Assembly (NCBI GenBank): GCA_045863855.1
Contig: BTVV01000142.1
Coordinates: 1-14,914 of the forward strand
From: Planctomycetota bacterium
Lineage (GTDB): Bacteria > Planctomycetota > SZUA-567 > H5-PLA8
Length of the DNA stretch: 14,914 bases
Reading direction: 5' to 3'
Part shown: in pieces, positions 2,848 to 14,914 of the stretch
Position numbering within the stretch: position 1 is the stretch's first letter
How the letters are laid out: each line of letters begins with the position of its first letter
The notes under the pieces: generated by a model
What the model was told of the DNA's origin: nothing
The model's database searches: none
What the model saw: only the letters and a program-made list of their open reading frames with translations
Program-made: the position numbers and the translations under genes

Positions 2848-4992
2848 TCAGTTGTAGTGCATCCCGTAGCCGCCGTTGTGGTCCTTGAGCGCGGCCACGA
2901 TGATCCAGAAAAAGGTGGCGAGCGCTTCGCCGACGATGAGTCCAATGAAGAAGTTGCGCCCGCGCAGGTAAACGCGCTGGCCGCCGAAACGCACGATCAG
3001 CGTCTTGATCAGCCAACCCAGGAAGTACGTGAACCACATGCGGTGGATGGGCCAAGGGCCCATCCACATCACGTAGCCGATGGGATGCGGCCACCAGAAG
3101 AGGCGCGTGCGCAGGAGCAAAAACGCGCCCATCATCAGCGCCCCGACGCTCATCCAGACGATCTTGTGCGTGTCGGGACGGGCCACCTTCGGCACCTCGG
3201 CGGAAGGGACCTCTTTGCCGCGTTCCGCAAACTCGGCTTCTTTCTTTTCCCAAGCGTTCATTTTGGAGACGGTATCCGCCATCGAGCGGAACTCGCCTTG
3301 CGGGTGGTTGTCGAAGGCCCATCCAAACTGGCGCGCGCCCCCCGGATAACGGTAGGCGGTGCTGTAAAAGCTATAGAAGCTGACGCCGAAGGTGACGGCC
3401 AGCGCCGCGACGAGCCCGATGACGAGAGGCTTGCGGCGCAGGTTCGTGACGGAGCCCAGATGCAGCGCGCCGAGGATATTGATCATCGGGTTGCTGCGGT
3501 ACCAGTCGAAGACGAAGATGCGGCTCCAGATGCTGAGCATGATGAAATTCTGCGGTCCCATGGCGACGGGGGTGAAGATCTGCGCGAGCAACTGGGCGGG
3601 GTTGGAGCCCATCTGGAGGAAAAAGACGCCGCCCTCGCTGACGAGGCGCGAGATGGCGGTGGCCGAGAGGAGCAGGATTACGGCGGCGGCCAGCGCCCAG
3701 TACCACGAGATGCCCGCGACGAGGACCATCCACAGAACGGAGCCGATGAGGCCGCCGATCAGGAGAAACCAGAGCGCGCGGGCCTTGCTGGCCGCGCCAG
3801 CTTCGTTTTCGGCATGCAGCCCCAGCGCCTGGCGGAGACTGTCGAGCAAGATCGTCCGCGCCATGAAGAACCCGATCAGGACCATCATGAAGGCCGCGCC
3901 CATGCCCTGGGAGGTGAAAATGCTTTGAGGGCCGTCGAAGCCCGAAAAATACCAGCCGTTGCTGCCTAAGCCGAAGCCCAGCACGGCGATCAGAATCCCG
4001 AGCTTCAAGACCACGATGTAAAAGAACCAGAGCGAGAAGCTCACTTCGAGCGAGATGAGGTACATGATCCCGATGACGGAGGGATAAATGTTCATGTAGA
4101 CCGGGTGCAGATGTCGCCAAGGCGGTTCGGTGAGGTAGGTCCAGTCCATGTGCGTGTTGTGGAGCTGGATGGTGGGCCAAGTGGGGAAGTAGTCGACCAT
4201 CGCGTTCCATCCGTGCAGAAGGAACGTGACGGCCAGGCCCCAGTAGGAGAGGCGGTCTTTGAAGAACAGGGGCACTCCACCGCGGCCGCCCATGCCGACG
4301 GTCATGGCTTCGGGAATCTGGGCCAGCGGGAAGGGGAGGCGTTCGCGGTCGGACCACTGCCGGTGCAGGAGCGCCGAGAGGGCAAAGAACATGCCCAGCA
4401 CCATGACGAGTGCGAGGAACCACCAGAGGTAAGGTCCGATCAAACTTTGCCACGGAACCGAAGTATTGGGCGGGAGGCCGGCAAAGAACCATTCGACGGG
4501 CCGCGGATCGGTGCTGAGGGGATCGCTGGGATCGCGCGCGGCGAGGTGGCCCGGGATGAACGGATGGAGCAGGTGCTCCCAGTCGTTCTCGGGGCGGGCG
4601 TAGTAGAAGCTGCCCAATTGCGCCACCGTGCCGTAGGCCATGAAGCCGTAACCGGGAAGCGGATTGATCAGCATCGTCATGGCGAAGACGAGCGCGACAT
4701 CCTGGCGGCTGAGGCCGACGGTCTCGCGCCAGTGTGCGAGCGCGACGTTGCAGAGCACGATCAATACGAAGGAGAGCACGACCGAGGACGCCGGGAGGAG
4801 ATTCAGCGTCAGGACGGTATGCCGGATGACGTAGTCGATCTGCGGGATCAGGTAACTGAGCGCTGCGCAGGCGATCAGGCCGGCGGCCCAGCCGCGCACG
4901 GTGGGATTCGTGGCCTGGGCGTGGTCGAGCCCTTGCAGGCGCGCGCGATCTTCGGCGTCGAAACGAGGCCCGCCCCGGTACGAATCGGCCAC
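2848..4992 (-). CDS. Large polytopic membrane protein, DUF6785/DUF6784-type (putative OPT-like peptide transporter)
   Basis: 714 aa, GTG start with GAGGG/GGAAG upstream, and many hydrophobic segments. Family-type motifs recognised: RQWSDRERLPFPLAQIP, YLISLEVSFSLWFFY, SRLVSEGG, FWWPHPIGY and RFGGQRVY..GRNFFIGLIVGE. Transport function is inferred. Confidence 0.7.
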   Translation of the reverse strand: MADSYRGGPRFDAEDRARLQGLDHAQATNPTVRGWAAGLIACAALSYLIPQIDYVIRHTVLTLNLLPASSVVLSFVLIVLCNVALAHWRETVGLSRQDVALVFAMTMLINPLPGYGFMAYGTVAQLGSFYYARPENDWEHLLHPFIPGHLAARDPSDPLSTDPRPVEWFFAGLPPNTSVPWQSLIGPYLWWFLALVMVLGMFFALSALLHRQWSDRERLPFPLAQIPEAMTVGMGGRGGVPLFFKDRLSYWGLAVTFLLHGWNAMVDYFPTWPTIQLHNTHMDWTYLTEPPWRHLHPVYMNIYPSVIGIMYLISLEVSFSLWFFYIVVLKLGILIAVLGFGLGSNGWYFSGFDGPQSIFTSQGMGAAFMMVLIGFFMARTILLDSLRQALGLHAENEAGAASKARALWFLLIGGLIGSVLWMVLVAGISWYWALAAAVILLLSATAISRLVSEGGVFFLQMGSNPAQLLAQIFTPVAMGPQNFIMLSIWSRIFVFDWYRSNPMINILGALHLGSVTNLRRKPLVIGLVAALAVTFGVSFYSFYSTAYRYPGGARQFGWAFDNHPQGEFRSMADTVSKMNAWEKKEAEFAERGKEVPSAEVPKVARPDTHKIVWMSVGALMMGAFLLLRTRLFWWPHPIGYVMWMGPWPIHRMWFTYFLGWLIKTLIVRFGGQRVYLRGRNFFIGLIVGEALATFFWIIVAALKDHNGGYGMHYN

Positions 4993-8587: not shown

Positions 8588-9967
8588 ATGCCGCCGTCGG
8601 TGCGACGCGAACTTTCCGGGTGGGCGCGTTACCCGGTGGAAACTTGCCACGAATTCCGGCCCGAGCGGCGCGGGGCGGTGGCCGAAATTCTGGCATCCGG
8701 CGGGCAGAGCAGCTACATTGCGCGTGGATTGGGCCGCAGTTACGGCGACTGCGCGCTGAATCGTGGCGCCGGTGTGGTGAACCTGACGCGGCTCGACCGA
8801 TTCCTGAATTTCGACGAAGACACGGGGGAAGTGCGCTGCGAAGCGGGCGTGAGCTTCGAGGCGTTGCTGCAGACGTTCCTGCCGCGAGGCTGGTTCCCGC
8901 CGGTGACGCCCGGTACGAAGTTCGTCACGGTGGGCGGCGCGATCGCGAACGATATCCACGGCAAGAATCACCACGCAGACGGCACCTTCGGCGCGGCGGT
9001 GAACGAGGTGACGCTCCTGACGCCGAACGGCGAGCGGGTCGTCTGCGGTCCGCAGCGCAACTCGAACCTGTTCTGGGCGACGGTGGGCGGCGCGGGGTTG
9101 ACGGGGTTCGTCCTGGACGCTCGCTTTCGGATGCTGAAGGTCGAGACGGCTTACCTGAAGGCGGATCACCTGCGCGTGAAGGGGCTTGCCGAGGCGATGC
9201 GCGCGATGCTGGAGTCGGACGCGGGGTATCGCTATTCGGTGGCATGGATCGACGGATTGGCGCGCGGGAAAAGCTTGGGTCGCAGCGTACTGATGCGCGC
9301 GAACCATGCGCGGTTGTCGGACCTGCCGGCGGGGACGCCCAATCCGCTGTGGCCGCCGCCGCGGGGGCGCTGCGGCGTACCGTTTAATCTTCCCTCCCTG
9401 ACGCTGAACCGCTGGAGCGTGCGCGCGTTCAATACGCTGTACTACGCCACGCACGGCGATGCGGCCGGGAAGCTGGTGGACTTCGACGCGTATTTTTATC
9501 CGCTGGATTCGATCGCGCACTGGTACCGGCTCTACGGCCGGCGCGGCTTCGTGCAGTTCCAAGTGAGTTTTCCGGCAGCGACCGCGGAAGCGGGGCTGGC
9601 GGAAGTGTTGGAGAAGCTTGCGGCTTCGGGGCGTGCTTCGTTTCTCGCGGTGTTGAAACGGTTCGGCGCGGCGAACGCGGGATGGCTCTCGTTTCCTTCG
9701 CCCGGATTCACGCTGGCTCTCGATTTACCGATGCGCGACGGATTGCCGCGCATGCTGGGCGAATTGGAAGGCCGGGTGCTGGCGCACGGCGGGCGGATCT
9801 ACGCAGCGAAGGATGCGTTGACGACCGCCGACGCGTTTCGTGCGATGTATCCGGAGCTGGGACGCTTTCGCGCGTTGCGCGCGGAACTGGATCCGCGGGT
9901 ATTGCTTTCGAGCAGCCTGGCGCGGCGGCTGGGATTGGCGCGGGCGGGCGCGGAGGCGTTCGCATGA
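8588..9967 (+). CDS. dprE1: FAD-dependent decaprenylphosphoryl-beta-D-ribose 2'-oxidase-like protein (DprE1/NoeH-like)
   Basis: 459 aa. Motifs LSGWAR, IARGLGRSYGD.A, PVTPGTKFVTVGGAIANDIHGKNHH, LFWATVGG.GLTG, YSVAWID, FYPLD, YGRRGFVQFQ, SFLAVLKRFG, LSFP..G.TLALD and GGRIYAAKD, together with adjacency to dprE2- and ubiA-like genes. Confidence 0.88.
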   Translation: MPPSVRRELSGWARYPVETCHEFRPERRGAVAEILASGGQSSYIARGLGRSYGDCALNRGAGVVNLTRLDRFLNFDEDTGEVRCEAGVSFEALLQTFLPRGWFPPVTPGTKFVTVGGAIANDIHGKNHHADGTFGAAVNEVTLLTPNGERVVCGPQRNSNLFWATVGGAGLTGFVLDARFRMLKVETAYLKADHLRVKGLAEAMRAMLESDAGYRYSVAWIDGLARGKSLGRSVLMRANHARLSDLPAGTPNPLWPPPRGRCGVPFNLPSLTLNRWSVRAFNTLYYATHGDAAGKLVDFDAYFYPLDSIAHWYRLYGRRGFVQFQVSFPAATAEAGLAEVLEKLAASGRASFLAVLKRFGAANAGWLSFPSPGFTLALDLPMRDGLPRMLGELEGRVLAHGGRIYAAKDALTTADAFRAMYPELGRFRALRAELDPRVLLSSSLARRLGLARAGAEAFA

Positions 9968-10728
9968 GCGGCCTGCGCCAGGGCGCCGGACGGAGCGTGT
10001 TGATCTTCGGCGCGACGAGCCCGGTGGCGCGCGCACTGGCGCGGGAGTTCGCGCGCTGCGGCTACGAACTCTTTCTTGCCGGCCGGGCGGGGGAGGATCT
10101 GGAAGCCGTGGCGGCCGACCTGCGCATCCGGCACCGTGTTCCCGCGCACGCCTGCCCGTTGGATGCGCTGGCGTTCGAGACGCACGGCGCGTTTTTCGAA
10201 GCGCTGGCGGCGCGGACGGGGGAGTCGCTGTACGTGGCGGTATTCTGCATCGGTTCGATGAGCGACCAGAAAGCCGCGGAACGCGATTGGGAAGCGTCGC
10301 GGGCGATGCTGGACACGAACTATACGGCCGCGGTCTCGTTGCTGGAGCGCACGGCAGCATACTTCGAGCCGCGCAAGCGCGGCGTGATCGGCGTGATGGG
10401 GTCGGTTGCCGGGGACCGGGGCCGGCAGAGCAACTACTTGTACGGTTCGGCCAAAGCGGGTCTTGCGGCATACGCGCAAGGGTTGCGAAACCGGCTTTGG
10501 CGCTCGGGCGTGCAGGTGACTACGATCAAACCCGGATTCATGGACACTCGGATGACGTGGGGCAAGGCGGGTTTGTTCGGCGTGGCCACGCCAGAGGGAG
10601 CGGCGGAAGGGATCTTCGCCGCGCTGGCCGCGGGGCGCGACGTGGCGTACGTCCCGGGCTTCTGGCGCGGGATCATGTTGCTGATTGGCGCGGTGCCCGA
10701 GCGTGTGTTCAAACGGCTTAAACTTTGA
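9964..10728 (+). CDS. dprE2: Short-chain dehydrogenase/reductase, DprE2-like decaprenylphosphoryl-2-keto-pentose reductase
   Basis: ATG 9964 overlaps the dprE1 stop (ATGA). Has Rossmann motif LIFGATSPVA, SVAGDRGRQSNYLYGSAKAG (YxxxK), GLRNRL, IKPGFMDTRMT and C-terminal PERVFKRLKL, all typical of the DprE2-like clade. Confidence 0.85.
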   Translation: MSGLRQGAGRSVLIFGATSPVARALAREFARCGYELFLAGRAGEDLEAVAADLRIRHRVPAHACPLDALAFETHGAFFEALAARTGESLYVAVFCIGSMSDQKAAERDWEASRAMLDTNYTAAVSLLERTAAYFEPRKRGVIGVMGSVAGDRGRQSNYLYGSAKAGLAAYAQGLRNRLWRSGVQVTTIKPGFMDTRMTWGKAGLFGVATPEGAAEGIFAALAAGRDVAYVPGFWRGIMLLIGAVPERVFKRLKL

Positions 10729-10738
10729 AAGCGTAAGC

Positions 10739-11638
10739 ATGCCAGAATCGTCCGAAGCCGAAGTTCCCGCCGCCGAAACGCCGATGCGCGCGCCTTGGGT
10801 GCGCCTGCTGCGCCCGCGCCAATGGGTCAAGAACGGCTTTGTTTTCGCACCCCTGGTCTTCACGGGGTTGTACCATCAGGAGCCGTCGCTGCTTCGCGTC
10901 GCGGCGTTGTTCGGGCTGTTCTGCGTAGCCAGTTCGGCGGTGTACGTTTTTAACGACCTATTCGATCTGGAAGATGACCGGAAACACCCGGAAAAGCGCT
11001 GCCGCCGGCCGCTGGCGGCGGGCGCGATTTCTCCCACGGCGGCCTGGGTGCTGCTGGCCTGCCTGGAAGCGATAACGGCGGGAGCCGCAGTGCTGCTGGG
11101 ACGAGTGGGGTTGGTGCTTGCGGCTTACCAGGCGTTGAACGTCCTGTACACGGTGCGGCTAAAGGATGTGCCGATCGTGGATCTGTTCTGTATCGCGGCG
11201 GGATTCGTATTGCGGGTCTATGCGGGGGCGGTGATTCTGGACGTTCCGCTCTCGCCCTGGATGCTGAATACGACCTTATGCTTGGCGCTGTATCTTGTGG
11301 CGACGAAGCGGTTACAGGAGAAAAAGGCGCACGAGGATTCGGCGCGGCCGGTGTTGAAGCAGTACTCGCAGAGCTTGCTGGAGTACTTCGCGTTTCTCTC
11401 GGCGGTGGGAGCGCTTTTATTTTACGGCATTTTCGCACTGACGGTGCGCAAGGAGCTGGCGCTCTCGATTCCGCTGGTGCTGTTTGGATTCTTTCGCTAT
11501 CGCTACATCGTGGATTGCCTGGATGGGGGTGAATCGCCCACAGATGCGCTGTGGCAGGATTTCCCTCTGGCGCTGACGGTTCTGGCGTGGGTGGGCGTCT
11601 GTTTTTACGCCATGCGCATGGAGGGGCTGGGATCGTGA
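10739..11638 (+). CDS. UbiA-family polyprenyl-phosphate 5-phosphoribosyltransferase (DPPR synthase, Rv3806c/NoeC-like)
   Basis: Start probably ATG 10739 (alternative ATG 10784). Motifs RPRQWVKN, SSAVYVFNDLFD...DRKHPEK..RPLAAG, Y...LK.VPIVD..CIAAGFVLR, KR..E and C-terminal ESPT, with multiple TM helices. Confidence 0.88.
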   Translation: MPESSEAEVPAAETPMRAPWVRLLRPRQWVKNGFVFAPLVFTGLYHQEPSLLRVAALFGLFCVASSAVYVFNDLFDLEDDRKHPEKRCRRPLAAGAISPTAAWVLLACLEAITAGAAVLLGRVGLVLAAYQALNVLYTVRLKDVPIVDLFCIAAGFVLRVYAGAVILDVPLSPWMLNTTLCLALYLVATKRLQEKKAHEDSARPVLKQYSQSLLEYFAFLSAVGALLFYGIFALTVRKELALSIPLVLFGFFRYRYIVDCLDGGESPTDALWQDFPLALTVLAWVGVCFYAMRMEGLGS

Positions 11639-11745
11639 TGGGTTCTGGGGCAGTTGCGTTTGCGCGGAGGACGCTATAGGACTATGAGCCTCATGCGGAT
11701 CGAATGCTTGTCAAACCTTCAGCTTGCATCGCGGGCCTTGAGTAA

Positions 11746-13614
11746 ATGAGCGATCCAGGCACTCACGGTCCAACCATCGCCGATGCGCTGATGAACGCAC
11801 CCATTCTCGGGAAATGCGACCGCTTGGCGCTGGCGCGCTTGGTTCCGCACGCAGTGGAATTGCGATTCCAGCCGGGCGAGAAGCTATACGAGAGCAACGG
11901 CCCGGCGGCACAGGCGTATTTGCTGCGGCGTGGTTCGGTCCGGCTGATGGACGGCGGCCGGGTGATCGAGGCGGTGCACGAAGGATTCGTGGGTGAAGAA
12001 GCCGCGGTGGAAGGCAAACACTATCTGACCGATGCGGTGGCCTCTGAGGAAGTCGTGGCGCTGGGAATTTCGCGGGAGTCGCTTCAGGCCCTTTCCAAGA
12101 TGGATCCGACGGCCAAGGCGGGCTTCTACCACAGCCTGATCAACCATTTCGCCGGCGAACGCGAGTTCCCGGTGGAGATCGGCAAGAAGAAGAAGTCTGG
12201 CGAAGCGGCCTCCTGGTTGCAGGCCGTGGGATGGTTGGCGGCGATTGTGGGTCCGGCCTTCGTATATTACCTCGCTTCAGCGAATGGCATGCAGTCGCGC
12301 GAAACGAACTACTTGGCGGTTTTCACGGCCACGACGCTGATGTGGGTCTTTCGCCTGCTGCCCGAATACATTCCGGCGATCTTCGTGGTGCTGGCTTCGA
12401 TCATTCTGGGCGTAGTTCCTGCTTCGGACGTGCTATCGGGGTTCGCCTCGGGCAGCTTTTTCATGGCGATGAGCGTGTTTGGGATCGGCGCGGTGCTGGT
12501 GCGTTCGGGCCTGATTTACCGGTTATCGCTGTGGCTGTTGAAGCACGCGCCGGCCACGCAGTTGGGCTACGAGTGCGCGATGATGCTCGTGGGGTTGCTG
12601 CTGACGCCGGTGCTGCCATCGGCGAACGGCCGCGTCTCGCTGATGGCTCCGCTGCTGGAAGACATCACGGATGCGGTGCGCTACAAACGCGGGCAGATGG
12701 CCGCGACGCGACTGGCCGCGGCTACCTTCACGGGGGCCACGGCGCTTTCGGCGATCTTTCTGACGAGCAAGTCGATCAACTTCGCGGTGTACGATCTCTT
12801 TCCGGCGCAGGTGAAGTTTCAGTTCACCTGGGGCTATTGGATCGTCGCGGCAGCGGTGGTGGGCGGCATCATCGTGCTGGGGCACTTCGCGCTCTCGTTC
12901 GTCTTCTTTCGAAACGAGGAAAAGCCCTACCTGAACCGGAGTCGCGTCACCTCGCAGTTAAAGGTGATGGGTCCGATGAGTAAGGAAGAGTGGATCGCGC
13001 TTTCGGGGATCGTCTTTTTCGTTTTTGGGGCGCTGACGAGCAGTCTGCACAAAGTCCAGCCGCCCTGGATCGGGCTGGCCGTGCTGTACATGCTGATCAA
13101 CCTAGGCGTCTTTTCCAAGAACGACCTGCGCAAAGAGATCGACTGGCCGTTCCTGCTGATGCTGGCGGGGATGGTTAGCATCGTGAATACCATGGAGAAG
13201 CTGAAGCTCGACGACTTGCTGAAGAAGCACATCGAGTGGATGGGCGAGTACCTGCGGGACGACTTATTTATTTTCTTGCTGCTGCTCTCGGCGTTCATCT
13301 TCCTGATTCGCCTGGTGATGCCCAATAACGCGGCCATCGTTTTGTTGTGCACGGTATTCCTGCCGATTGCCGATGAACAAGGCGTATCGGCGTGGATCCT
13401 GGCCTTTGTGATTTTGCTGGTCAGCGACGGATTCGTGATGGCCTACCAGTGCACCTATTACCTGCAGTTTCAGGAAGAGCTGGAGGGCAAAGGCGACGAC
13501 GTCCCGCTTTACAACGAGAGGCGCATGCTCTGGTATAACCTCTTCTCCAACGCCATACGCATAGGAGCCGTGTTCGCATCGGTACCCTATTGGAAAATGT
13601 TGGGGCTGCTATGA
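11746..13614 (+). CDS. Cyclic-nucleotide-binding (cNMP/Crp-type) domain fused to a DASS/SLC13-family permease
   Basis: 622 aa. The first ~135 aa fit a cNMP fold (FQPGEKLYESNGPAAQAYLLRRGSVRL...GFVGEEA...AVASEEVVALGISRESL). The rest is hydrophobic with DASS features: LSGFAS, RSGLIYRL, TPVLPSANGR, MGPMSKEE, IDWPFLL and a second hairpin LVMPNNAA. Confidence 0.85.
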   Translation: MSDPGTHGPTIADALMNAPILGKCDRLALARLVPHAVELRFQPGEKLYESNGPAAQAYLLRRGSVRLMDGGRVIEAVHEGFVGEEAAVEGKHYLTDAVASEEVVALGISRESLQALSKMDPTAKAGFYHSLINHFAGEREFPVEIGKKKKSGEAASWLQAVGWLAAIVGPAFVYYLASANGMQSRETNYLAVFTATTLMWVFRLLPEYIPAIFVVLASIILGVVPASDVLSGFASGSFFMAMSVFGIGAVLVRSGLIYRLSLWLLKHAPATQLGYECAMMLVGLLLTPVLPSANGRVSLMAPLLEDITDAVRYKRGQMAATRLAAATFTGATALSAIFLTSKSINFAVYDLFPAQVKFQFTWGYWIVAAAVVGGIIVLGHFALSFVFFRNEEKPYLNRSRVTSQLKVMGPMSKEEWIALSGIVFFVFGALTSSLHKVQPPWIGLAVLYMLINLGVFSKNDLRKEIDWPFLLMLAGMVSIVNTMEKLKLDDLLKKHIEWMGEYLRDDLFIFLLLLSAFIFLIRLVMPNNAAIVLLCTVFLPIADEQGVSAWILAFVILLVSDGFVMAYQCTYYLQFQEELEGKGDDVPLYNERRMLWYNLFSNAIRIGAVFASVPYWKMLGLL

Positions 13615-14651
13615 ATCTCCAGAAGATCACCAGCGCGTTTATGGTGCTGTTCCTGGCGATCGTAGGATCGTTCCTGATCCACGAAAGCTTGAAGCGGCCG
13701 CGCATTCTGGTTCTGCACAGCTACTACACGGATTACGCGTGGGTAAAGGACATCGATATCGGGATCAGGCGCGAGCTGGGTTCGCGGCCGTACAACTTGC
13801 GCTTCCATTATATGGACACGAAAAGGCATCCGTTTCCCGAGTTCATGGAGAAGGCGGGCTTGACGGCGCGCCGGATGATCGACGAGTGGCAGCCGGATAT
13901 CATTATCGCGGTGGACGACAACGCGCAGAAGTACGTGACGCGTTACTACATCGACGATCCGAACAAGGTGATTTTGTTCAGCGGATTGAACGCCGAGCTT
14001 CAGGACTATAACTTCCATACGGCCAAAAACGTGACGGGCATCATCGAGCGCATTCCGTACGAGGCGGCGCGGGACATTTTTCTGCAGCTCCTGCCTTCCG
14101 ATAAGCGCCGCGTGTACCACATTTCGGACGACTCGGAAACTTCCGTGGCGATTCACAAGGAAATCGAGAACTTCGACTGGAGCCCCTTGAAGTTCGTCGA
14201 GTCCAAGCAGATCACCACCTTCGGGCAGTGGAAGGAAGCGGTGAAGGACGCCGAGGACGAATGCGACTGCCTGCTGATTACGCACTACCACACGCTCAAA
14301 GACGACAACGATCCCACTAAGATCATCAAGCCCATCGACGTGGTGACGTGGACCGAACAGAACACCAAGCTGCCGACCTTGGGTTTCTGGGGCTTCTTCG
14401 TCGAAGAAGGCGGCATGATGGCGGTAGCCGTTTCGCCGTACGAGCAGGGGGAGATCCCGGCGCGCATGGCTTGGCAGATCATCGAAGGCGGTATCAAGCC
14501 TCACGAAGTGGCCGAGAAATTTCCGTGGCAGAAGAACCGGCTTTTCGTGATGTTCATGCGCGGATCGACCTTCCGCGAACGCCTGAAAGGCCAGGAAATG
14601 CCGCTGATTCTGGAAGCCTTCGCCCGGGCCATGAATCACTATTACGAATAG
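13611..14651 (+). CDS. Membrane-anchored ABC-type solute-binding-like protein (type 1 periplasmic binding fold, ABC_sub_bind-like)
   Basis: ATG 13611 overlaps the permease stop (ATGA), giving 346 aa. Single N-terminal hydrophobic segment with no lipobox Cys. Motifs ILVLHSY..DY.W...I..GI, YMDTKR, PDIIIAVDDNA, FSGLN, NVTGIIE, ISDDSETS, GGMMAVAVSPYEQG. Confidence 0.8.
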   Translation: MNLQKITSAFMVLFLAIVGSFLIHESLKRPRILVLHSYYTDYAWVKDIDIGIRRELGSRPYNLRFHYMDTKRHPFPEFMEKAGLTARRMIDEWQPDIIIAVDDNAQKYVTRYYIDDPNKVILFSGLNAELQDYNFHTAKNVTGIIERIPYEAARDIFLQLLPSDKRRVYHISDDSETSVAIHKEIENFDWSPLKFVESKQITTFGQWKEAVKDAEDECDCLLITHYHTLKDDNDPTKIIKPIDVVTWTEQNTKLPTLGFWGFFVEEGGMMAVAVSPYEQGEIPARMAWQIIEGGIKPHEVAEKFPWQKNRLFVMFMRGSTFRERLKGQEMPLILEAFARAMNHYYE

Positions 14652-14653
14652 TG

Positions 14654-14914
14654 TCAGTCGAGCTGGGTGCGGTTGCTGCGTAGTTCGTTGCTGCGGTAGG
14701 CCTCGATCAGCTCTTCCAGCAGTTCGATTTGAGCGCGAAGGGCGACGCCACGCTCGGTGTCGGCTACACGGCGCGGCTTGTCGTGGCGGCGCAATTCCCG
14801 AATCTCGGGAATGATGTCGACGCCGTCTCGCAACGCGGCATCCACGGATTCGAAATGGTGATGCTTGGCCAGGAAGGTGCGGTCGGCCTCCAACACCAGC
14901 GTATAGCCGTGATC
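14654..14914 (-). CDS. fbp: C-terminal fragment of class III fructose-1,6-bisphosphatase (gene runs off the right edge)
   Basis: The frame is open to the edge: DHGYTLVLEADRTFLAKHHHFESVDAALRDGVDIIP...RRVADTERGVALRAQIELLEELIEAYRS. This matches the class III FBPase C terminus pattern GYTL...H..FES...A...G.DI....V.DT..G..L..QI..L..L..AYR. The GTG at 14896 is internal. Confidence 0.8.
   Translation of the reverse strand, partial: DHGYTLVLEADRTFLAKHHHFESVDAALRDGVDIIPEIRELRRHDKPRRVADTERGVALRAQIELLEELIEAYRSNELRSNRTQLD

Follow-up and report, generated by a model that had tools for sequence, protein, structure and literature searches.

The window analyzed here is a stretch of 14,914 nucleotides from a Planctomycetota bacterium (GenBank assembly GCA_045863855.1, contig BTVV01000142.1), and close to its end it carries a compact two-gene unit on the forward strand. 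The first gene (11746 to 13614), identified from the open reading frame (ORF) list and from matches to PF00027 and PF00939, encodes a 622-residue permease (P0001) in which a cytoplasmic cyclic nucleotide-binding (CNB)-like domain is fused to a transport domain of the DASS family. The second (13611 to 14651), identified from a PF04392 match and a structural model, encodes a 346-residue membrane-tethered binding protein (P0002). We are highly confident that these two genes form a translationally coupled unit that is conserved, inherited together, and devoid of ABC components. By analogy with TRAP and TAXI-GltS systems, we hold with moderate confidence that their products would make up a binding-protein-assisted DASS carrier with a cytoplasmic regulatory domain.

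The two genes overlap in a single ATGA (13611 to 13614, read from the sequence, forward strand), a stop/start arrangement typical of translational coupling, and the ATG at 13611 is favored over an upstream TTG at 13590 because Met1 is invariant across 22 homologs. The stop codon of the binding-protein gene (TAG, 14649 to 14651) is separated by 2 nt from the end of a convergent gene on the reverse strand (14654 to 14914), the C terminus of a class 3 fructose-1,6-bisphosphatase (PF06874, E = 5.8e-15), which lies outside the unit. Among the 18 larger window ORFs scanned there is no ABC ATPase, ABC permease, DctQ, or kinase, and nothing in the window matches DctP, TAXI, or DctQ, so the unit does not classify as a TRAP system. 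On each of these points the sequence upholds the initial annotation of the window, which had described a cNMP-type-domain/DASS fusion gene overlapping an N-anchored binding-protein gene by ATGA, closed by a convergent gene 2 nt past the stop, and free of ABC ATPase, ABC permease, DctQ-like subunit, and kinase genes. P0002 is the only PF04392 match in the whole genome, and six class III cyclase matches occur elsewhere in the same genome.

Conservation of the pairing

The pairing recurs in many other genomes. In a collection of 5.8 billion proteins, P0002 has 356 relatives at E ≤ 1e-3; among the 120 matches listed, lengths range from 282 to 426 amino acids, source names come from several phyla, and identity to P0002 is 42 to 58%, except for the two closest Planctomycetota relatives (99% and 80%). 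A profile built from 22 P0002 relatives recovered 79 metagenome loci, in which the permease was sought by tblastn with P0001. In 71 of these 79 loci a permease homolog is encoded on the same strand as the binding-protein gene and at most 300 nt from it (68 upstream, 3 downstream), although many of the loci are near-copies of one another and the counts overstate the number of independent observations. Of the remainder, one (L034) has its permease 1.2 kb upstream, with an intervening ORF that is itself PF04392-like, four have the binding-protein gene at the contig start with no upstream room for a permease, and two have room on neither side. This leaves L008 as the sole locus with ample room on both sides yet without a permease. 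Stop/start overlaps of 4 nt or 1 nt were found in 38 of 56 near-full pairs and gaps of at most 20 nt in 7 more, counts for which a script chose the start nearest the expected position and which may therefore somewhat favor overlaps. Given how many loci have adjacent (71/79) and overlapping (38/56) genes, the pairing goes far beyond chance. Pairwise identities of the permease and of the binding protein are also strongly correlated (r = 0.85 over 38 pairs, reached by none of 2,000 partner shuffles), a co-divergence that indicates a shared history as a unit, not contact.

Within Planctomycetota the module is patchy. Across 401 genomes, orthologue-level binding proteins (E < 1e-100) were found in five and orthologue-level permeases in four; all four permeases adjoin the binding-protein gene, and in the fifth genome a permease C terminus lies at the contig end. 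Orthologue-level matches are confined to 2 of 288 genera, and any match at E 1e-20 occurs in 12 genera. In all, the module is represented by 634 cluster representatives at E ≤ 1e-30, with source record names from Cyanobacteria, Gamma- and Deltaproteobacteria, Spirochaetota, Firmicutes, and Planctomycetota. Judged by these names, Thiohalocapsa marina and [Leptolyngbya] sp. PCC 7376 are among the organisms with at least one of the two genes. Common as it is across phyla, it is annotated in public records only under names such as "anion permease" or "SLC13 family permease" and "ABC transporter substrate-binding protein." The conservation across genomes and phyla on which the initial annotation had made its proposal depend is thus borne out by both the metagenome loci and the 401-genome survey. 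Variations in gene number also occur: one locus carries two complete permease/binding-protein pairs in tandem (L004, 2199-8026), and in two others a single binding-protein gene comes after two permease genes (L059, 1927-6709; L070, 2764-7519).

The same annotation had reasoned that its proposal would fail if homologous binding proteins consistently sat with ABC genes. We scanned up to two ORFs of at least 90 amino acids on each side of the pair, and the resulting 194 flanking ORFs include neither the permease nor the ATPase of an ABC importer, their only ABC match being an exporter-type fused protein on the opposite strand in L057. Neither in these flanks nor in the window, then, does the binding protein have the cognate ABC permease and ATPase alongside that define the ABC-importer class. 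These results bear directly on the possibility that the two genes are co-transcribed but independent, the binding protein serving an ABC transporter or sensor elsewhere and the permease working alone like VcINDY. Adjacency, overlap, co-divergence, and joint presence and absence across phyla would all be unexpected of unrelated genes, and P0002 scores only 28.1 bits against the TrpX equivalog model (cut-off 390). The name of PF04392 does derive from ABC systems, and two Planctomycetota genomes (G178 and G318) encode a TonB receptor and a FecCD-type ABC system downstream of the pair, but we rejected the latter as a partner because it is encoded with its own Peripla_BP_2 binding protein. We consider independence of the two genes very improbable.

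The permease and its cytoplasmic domain

The transport domain of the permease (residues 162 to 622; 12229 to 13611, forward strand) was delimited by Pfam and by profile comparison with solved DASS structures. It matches PF00939 Na_sulph_symp over residues 162 to 560 at 108.9 bits (cut-off 27), which places it in the DASS/SLC13 family; CitMHS also matches, and the DctM Pfam model stays below its threshold (14.9 bits versus 23.8). Nearly all of 117 homologs are about 610 to 630 amino acids long and have the same PF00027 plus PF00939 architecture. When a profile of the membrane part alone was compared with solved structures, the best matches were DiT2.1 (1.5e-16) and DiT1 (1.6e-15), followed by NaS1 (about 9e-7) and by VcINDY and NaDC3 (about 7e-6); in this search LaINDY did not reach E 0.01 and Pho90 gave no significant sequence match.

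Members of the DASS/SLC13 family bind substrate and cation through two Ser-Asn-Thr-type motifs at hairpin tips. The first and second tips of P0001 are Pro-Ser-Ala-Asn-Gly-Arg (12616 to 12633, forward strand) and Pro-Asn-Asn-Ala-Ala, respectively. Neither P291 nor R296 varies and N294 hardly does, a degree of conservation that we count in favor of a working transporter. The first motif aligns with Pro-Ser-Thr-Thr-Ala-Arg of DiT2.1, so that R296 falls on the Arg of DiT1 and DiT2.1, which is presumably equivalent to Arg159 of LaINDY. LaINDY has an Arg in the Na1 site and a His in the Na2 site, residues that are conserved in exchangers and absent from cotransporters (PMC7553777). The exchanger-clade His position is Ala in P0001, and because the Arg is kept but the His is replaced, ion coupling is not readable from the sequence; an exchanger-like mode is possible.

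The N-terminal cytoplasmic domain (residues 39 to 117; 11860 to 12096, forward strand) matches PF00027 cNMP_binding at 38.3 bits (cut-off 27.5). Its profile matches PKG and PKA domains, and the Gly-Glu of the cassette (region 11992 to 12042) is kept. In the PKG and PKA profile alignments, Tyr93 (12022 to 12024) stands opposite the Arg that binds the cyclic phosphate, and this Tyr is invariant in a 27-sequence alignment; P0001 thus lacks the combination of Gly-Glu with an Arg-Ser/Thr-Ala cassette expected of a functional cNMP sensor. More distant CNB-DASS proteins (26 to 33% identity) retain the canonical Phe-Gly-Glu ... Pro-Arg-Ser/Thr-Ala cassette, and the domain of the paired family is therefore a derived version, with Tyr in place of an Arg that its relatives keep. 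Of the cyclic-nucleotide gating considered in the initial annotation, the PF00027-type domain stands, but gating itself is weakened by the replacement of the cassette Arg. A link to cyclic nucleotides is kept possible by the cyclases that occasionally neighbor the pair.

The tethered binding protein and its possible roles

The binding protein matches PF04392 ABC_sub_bind at 34.5 bits (cut-off 25.9). Its AlphaFold2 model (mean predicted local distance difference test score [pLDDT], 84.8; predicted TM-score [pTM], 0.77) consists of an N-terminal helix and two alpha/beta lobes. The helix (residues 3 to 27; 13617 to 13691, forward strand) is hydrophobic and serves as the predicted membrane anchor, and its Phe14 is kept in at least 90% of sequences. 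The remainder (residues 30 to 346; 13698 to 14648, forward strand) adopts a two-lobed type I periplasmic-binding fold, recognized from alternating strands and helices in the model and from Foldseek. The Foldseek matches are headed by PF04392 proteins, with 3LKV at E 2.6e-12 and 3LFT (with L-Trp) at 2.1e-11, and CD0873 (6HNI, 6HNJ) is among the best (query and target TM-scores of 0.65 and 0.74 for 6HNJ); after the PF04392 structures come generic type I binding proteins, LuxP included. The sequence profile of the P0002 family reaches 3LKV at 3.9e-6, and the family is distant from the solved PF04392 proteins.

By homology the binding domain is extracytoplasmic: its counterpart in cyclase P0125, which shares its motifs, is flanked by a signal sequence and by the membrane helix that precedes the catalytic domain. 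A cytoplasmic location, suggested by basic residues after the anchor helix, was rejected, since these basic residues also precede strand 1 in P0125, where the domain is nonetheless extracytoplasmic. The LHSY/YMDTKR/DDNA domain type had been named in the initial annotation as an extracytoplasmic sensor region, and it is found as such in cyclases, phosphatases, and kinases.

In 38 paired binding proteins, the lobe residues conserved in at least 90% of sequences include S37, Y38, W44, T70, K71, D102, D103, Q106, N140, E146, D173, S175, Y226, W247, T248, E278, and Q279. In the model, the conserved residues of each lobe lie where strands end and in the loops that follow, positions that in type I binding folds line the ligand cleft. 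These residues would thus line the cleft of P0002, a pattern compatible with a ligand that is itself conserved. Conservation is highest over residues 261 to 280, a stretch that includes a loop (residues 262 to 270; 14394 to 14420) modeled with pLDDT below 50, which may be ordered only with ligand or partner.

Conserved polar residues at cleft-lining positions of both lobes would not be expected if the PF04392-like protein had lost solute binding and become a structural, stabilizing, or assembly subunit, as DctQ is for DctM, or a docking platform for extra soluble binding proteins. Such an accessory role would nevertheless accommodate the nearly invariant Phe14 in the anchor helix and the low-confidence loop within the most conserved stretch, a possible protein contact. 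It would also accommodate the finding that in several lineages the pair is directly adjoined by genes for binding proteins from other families, namely SBP_bac_3 (L044, L045, L048, L049, and L050), Peripla_BP_6 (L052 and L057), NMT1_3 (L033, L061, and L077), and PBP_like_2 (L061). Extra genes of this kind lie at L048, 1630-2400, where the gene overlaps the permease start, and at L052, 1403-2614; L057, 768-1967; L033, 1995-3038; L061, 3797-5128; and L077, 3021-4415. Most loci, the window included, have no second binding protein, and we regard an accessory subunit as improbable.

In a maximum-likelihood tree of 61 sequences, built with a quick search, the 45 permease-paired binding proteins all belong to one clade (Shimodaira-Hasegawa-like approximate likelihood ratio test [SH-aLRT] support, 100), which also takes in the unpaired L008 protein and the additional copy in L034. 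The clade is separate from the sensor domains fused to cyclases and phosphatases and from stand-alone Planctomycetota paralogs. Larger proteins were seen as well: P0123 (684 amino acids) has the binding fold with large repeated insertions, and many relatives of about 640 amino acids (P0311, P0313, P0316, and others) have two tandem PF04392-like domains.

The stand-alone, anchored Planctomycetota paralogs (27 to 35% identity to P0002) are coupled to signal transducers. They overlap the start of a CHASE hybrid histidine kinase gene (L084, 3560-6903) or of HAMP-PAS histidine kinase genes (L087, 3-3147; L090, 5851-9218), lie 11 nt upstream of a chemoreceptor gene (L086, 4292-6933), or overlap a preceding Ser/Thr kinase gene at its end (L085, 3224-6963). 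Judged from this gene order, they are likely binding-protein co-sensors. Because the wider family thus includes co-sensors working with membrane proteins, docking of P0002 on a membrane partner is plausible, and a purely regulatory role is also possible. The tethered protein could sense an outside ligand and gate or modulate the carrier without donating substrate, or the carrier could act as a transceptor that relays the outside signal to its cytoplasmic CNB-like domain. Translational coupling of paralogs to histidine kinases argues for such a role, as does the paralog whose gene immediately precedes that of a chemoreceptor. Domains of this type are moreover fused to class III cyclases and SpoIIE-type phosphatases encoded beside the pair in several loci, and LuxP, the co-sensor of LuxQ, appears among the fold matches, though as a generic type I match. 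Yet the P0001 fusion has no recognizable output domain, and in all characterized proteins known to us the CNB domain is an input module, which counts against a transceptor or sensory function. The hairpin motifs of the carrier are strongly conserved, which would be expected if it is a working transporter, and the paired binding proteins sit in a clade apart from the transducer-coupled ones. We judge a regulatory partner to be a serious but rather unlikely alternative.

The binding-protein-assisted carrier remains our preferred reading. P0001 would be a DASS-fold, elevator-type secondary carrier of an anionic solute, with the exchanger-type DiT members of plastids as its nearest counterparts, and P0002 a dedicated, membrane-tethered periplasmic binding protein that captures the solute outside the cell. 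Once loaded, P0002 would pass the solute on to the carrier in its outward-facing state, in the manner of TRAP, TTT, and TAXI-GltS systems, and the N-terminal CNB-like domain would tune the carrier in response to an intracellular ligand, not necessarily cAMP or cGMP. Docking of P0002 on the permease, a direction of transport, a substrate, and a ligand for the CNB-like domain are what this reading would add to the architecture, binding-protein fold, conserved pairing, translational coupling, co-divergence, and absence of ABC partners described above.

Several points weigh against it. P0001 scores 136.2 bits against TIGR00785, below the cut-off of 198.6, which marks it as a divergent DASS branch. 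No permease/binding-protein fusion occurs among four longer binding-protein relatives or among the 117 permease homologs. Aromatic amino acids are atypical DASS substrates. Yet the ligands of the three structurally solved PF04392 proteins are L-Trp, L-Tyr, or L-Phe (PMC10443332). The coupling of stand-alone paralogs to signal transducers and the redundancy of the metagenome loci count in the same direction. To our knowledge, the known binding-protein-dependent carriers are ion-coupled importers, not exchangers. P0001, for its part, keeps the Arg that replaces Na+ at the Na1 site in exchangers (PMC7553777).

Neighboring genes and candidate cargo

Upstream of the permease gene, an intergenic motif (TTGCGT, 15 nt, TATAGG; 11654 to 11680, forward strand) is common to the window and to two same-genus relatives (L001 and L002), and is a possible promoter of the two-gene unit. 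A consensus promoter scan called no promoter in the window, this motif included. A terminator scan found 8 terminator-like sites in the window, inside genes and not clearly above the 4.6 ± 2.3 of shuffled sequence, and an Rfam scan of the window gave zero family matches. Farther upstream (8588 to 11638), genes for an FAD-binding oxidase (PF01565), a short-chain dehydrogenase, and a UbiA prenyltransferase lie in a run, resembling the layout of the DprE1/DprE2/prenyl-phosphate pathway; the short-chain dehydrogenase and UbiA genes also lie upstream of the pair in L002. On the reverse strand, 2848 to 4992 encodes a large membrane protein (714 amino acids) of the uncharacterized families DUF6785 and DUF6784.

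In other loci the pair is accompanied by signaling genes. A class III cyclase gene directly follows the binding-protein gene in five loci (L009, 8059-10080; L013, 8032-10077; L017, 7987-9993; L027, 756-2735; L028, 7953-9938) and probably also in L015, a truncated locus. Each of these cyclases is a protein of 660 to 680 amino acids in which a PF04392-type domain outside the cell is combined with a membrane helix and a cyclase domain of the class III adenylate/guanylate type. A dCache cyclase lies near the pair in L023, and overall a cyclase domain was found near the pair in 6 of the 79 loci, 35 of which have at least 2 kb of downstream sequence. In L009 and L013 the next genes encode further carriers with CNB domains (SulP-STAS-cNMP; MFS/TLC-HEAT-cNMP). 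A PF04392-DUF3369-SpoIIE phosphatase and a STAS protein are encoded beside the pair in L079 and L080, and an anti-sigma-kinase-like protein in L055 and L056; in all four the permease is without the CNB-like domain, and by gene content the clusters look like a partner-switching signaling cluster. This CNB-less variant of the pair sits with genes for phosphosulfolactate synthase (ComA) and a histidine phosphatase (L079, 1554-8967; L080, 1397-8961; L055, 424-4637; L056, 1557-5770).

Genes of a phosphate-scavenging type lie beside the pair in four loci, encoding PhoX-like proteins (L004, 8054-9919; L017, 9990-11834), a PF04185 phosphoesterase (L074, 8048-9403), and a PstS-like PBP_like_2 protein (L061, 2921-3766). 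Together with the existence of the phosphate-specific DASS carrier Pho90, these neighbors provide a weak lead toward phosphate or a related anion as cargo, although they are too variable for a firm substrate call. We tentatively suggest that a PF04392-type tethered protein supplies a dimeric DASS elevator with an anion, perhaps phosphate itself or one that is phosphorylated or related, and that a repurposed CNB-like domain would control the activity of this carrier from the cytoplasm. The operon of some lineages would further include a cyclase or PP2C phosphatase whose outside sensor is paralogous, and sensing and import would then form one self-contained circuit.

Comparison with known systems

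We found no paper on a DASS/binding-protein pair or a CNB-DASS fusion in the full-text literature, a search whose coverage excludes most subscription journals; this agrees with the initial annotation, which knew of no characterized example. The pair may thus be an undescribed kind of binding-protein-assisted transporter. DASS carriers such as VcINDY, NaCT, and NaS1 are structural and biomedical models thought to work alone, and a natural partner together with a built-in cytoplasmic sensor domain would, if real, give new handles on the regulation of elevator carriers.

The best solved-structure matches of the permease, plastid DiT1 and DiT2.1 (9mcr, 9mcu), share with it the Arg after the first hairpin tip. 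Like LaINDY, however, they are carriers without a binding protein or sensor domain, and the Na2-site His of exchangers is not kept here. Yeast Pho90 resembles P0001 in being a DASS carrier with an N-terminal cytoplasmic regulatory domain, in its case an SPX domain; the regulatory domain here is a different one, and Pho90 has no binding protein. Pho90 is described as a phosphate-specific cotransporter of the DASS family (PMC13394699). In LuxP-LuxQ co-sensors, too, a type I binding fold docks on a membrane protein, and paralogs of P0002 are coupled to kinases and a chemoreceptor, but the partner in the window is a carrier and not a signal transducer.

Binding-protein-dependent secondary transport, as proposed here by analogy, is the mode of TRAP (DctPQM, SiaPQM) and TTT (TctABC) systems. 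The DctM subunit shares the DASS elevator fold, but TRAP membrane components are monomers (PMC12344293), whereas DASS carriers are homodimers (PMC7553777). In contrast to TRAP and TTT systems, the pair described here includes neither a small subunit of the Q or B kind nor a binding protein of the DctP, TAXI, or TctC type.

The closest parallel may be TAXI-GltS of Bordetella pertussis (BP0403/BP0402), which consists of a translationally coupled, lipid-anchored binding protein and an elevator-type carrier (Jaques et al. 2025, PMC12344293). In both cases a membrane-attached binding protein is coupled to an elevator carrier of a kind that normally works alone, and ABC or TRAP membrane genes are absent. 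The components differ: TAXI-GltS joins a TAXI-family protein to GltS (ESS family), whereas the pair in the window joins a PF04392 protein to a DASS carrier. TAXI-GltS also has natural fusions and a measured ligand (L-glutamate) and no cytoplasmic sensor domain, while here no fusion was seen and a CNB-like domain is present. Until TAXI-GltS was added as a third class, use of a soluble binding protein had been known for TRAP and TTT carriers alone, and its authors expect more such classes and ask why these partnerships are not commoner and whether an elevator mechanism is a prerequisite (PMC12344293). If confirmed, the pairing of a DASS carrier with a dedicated, tethered binding protein would be another independent elevator-fold case and would bear directly on that question.

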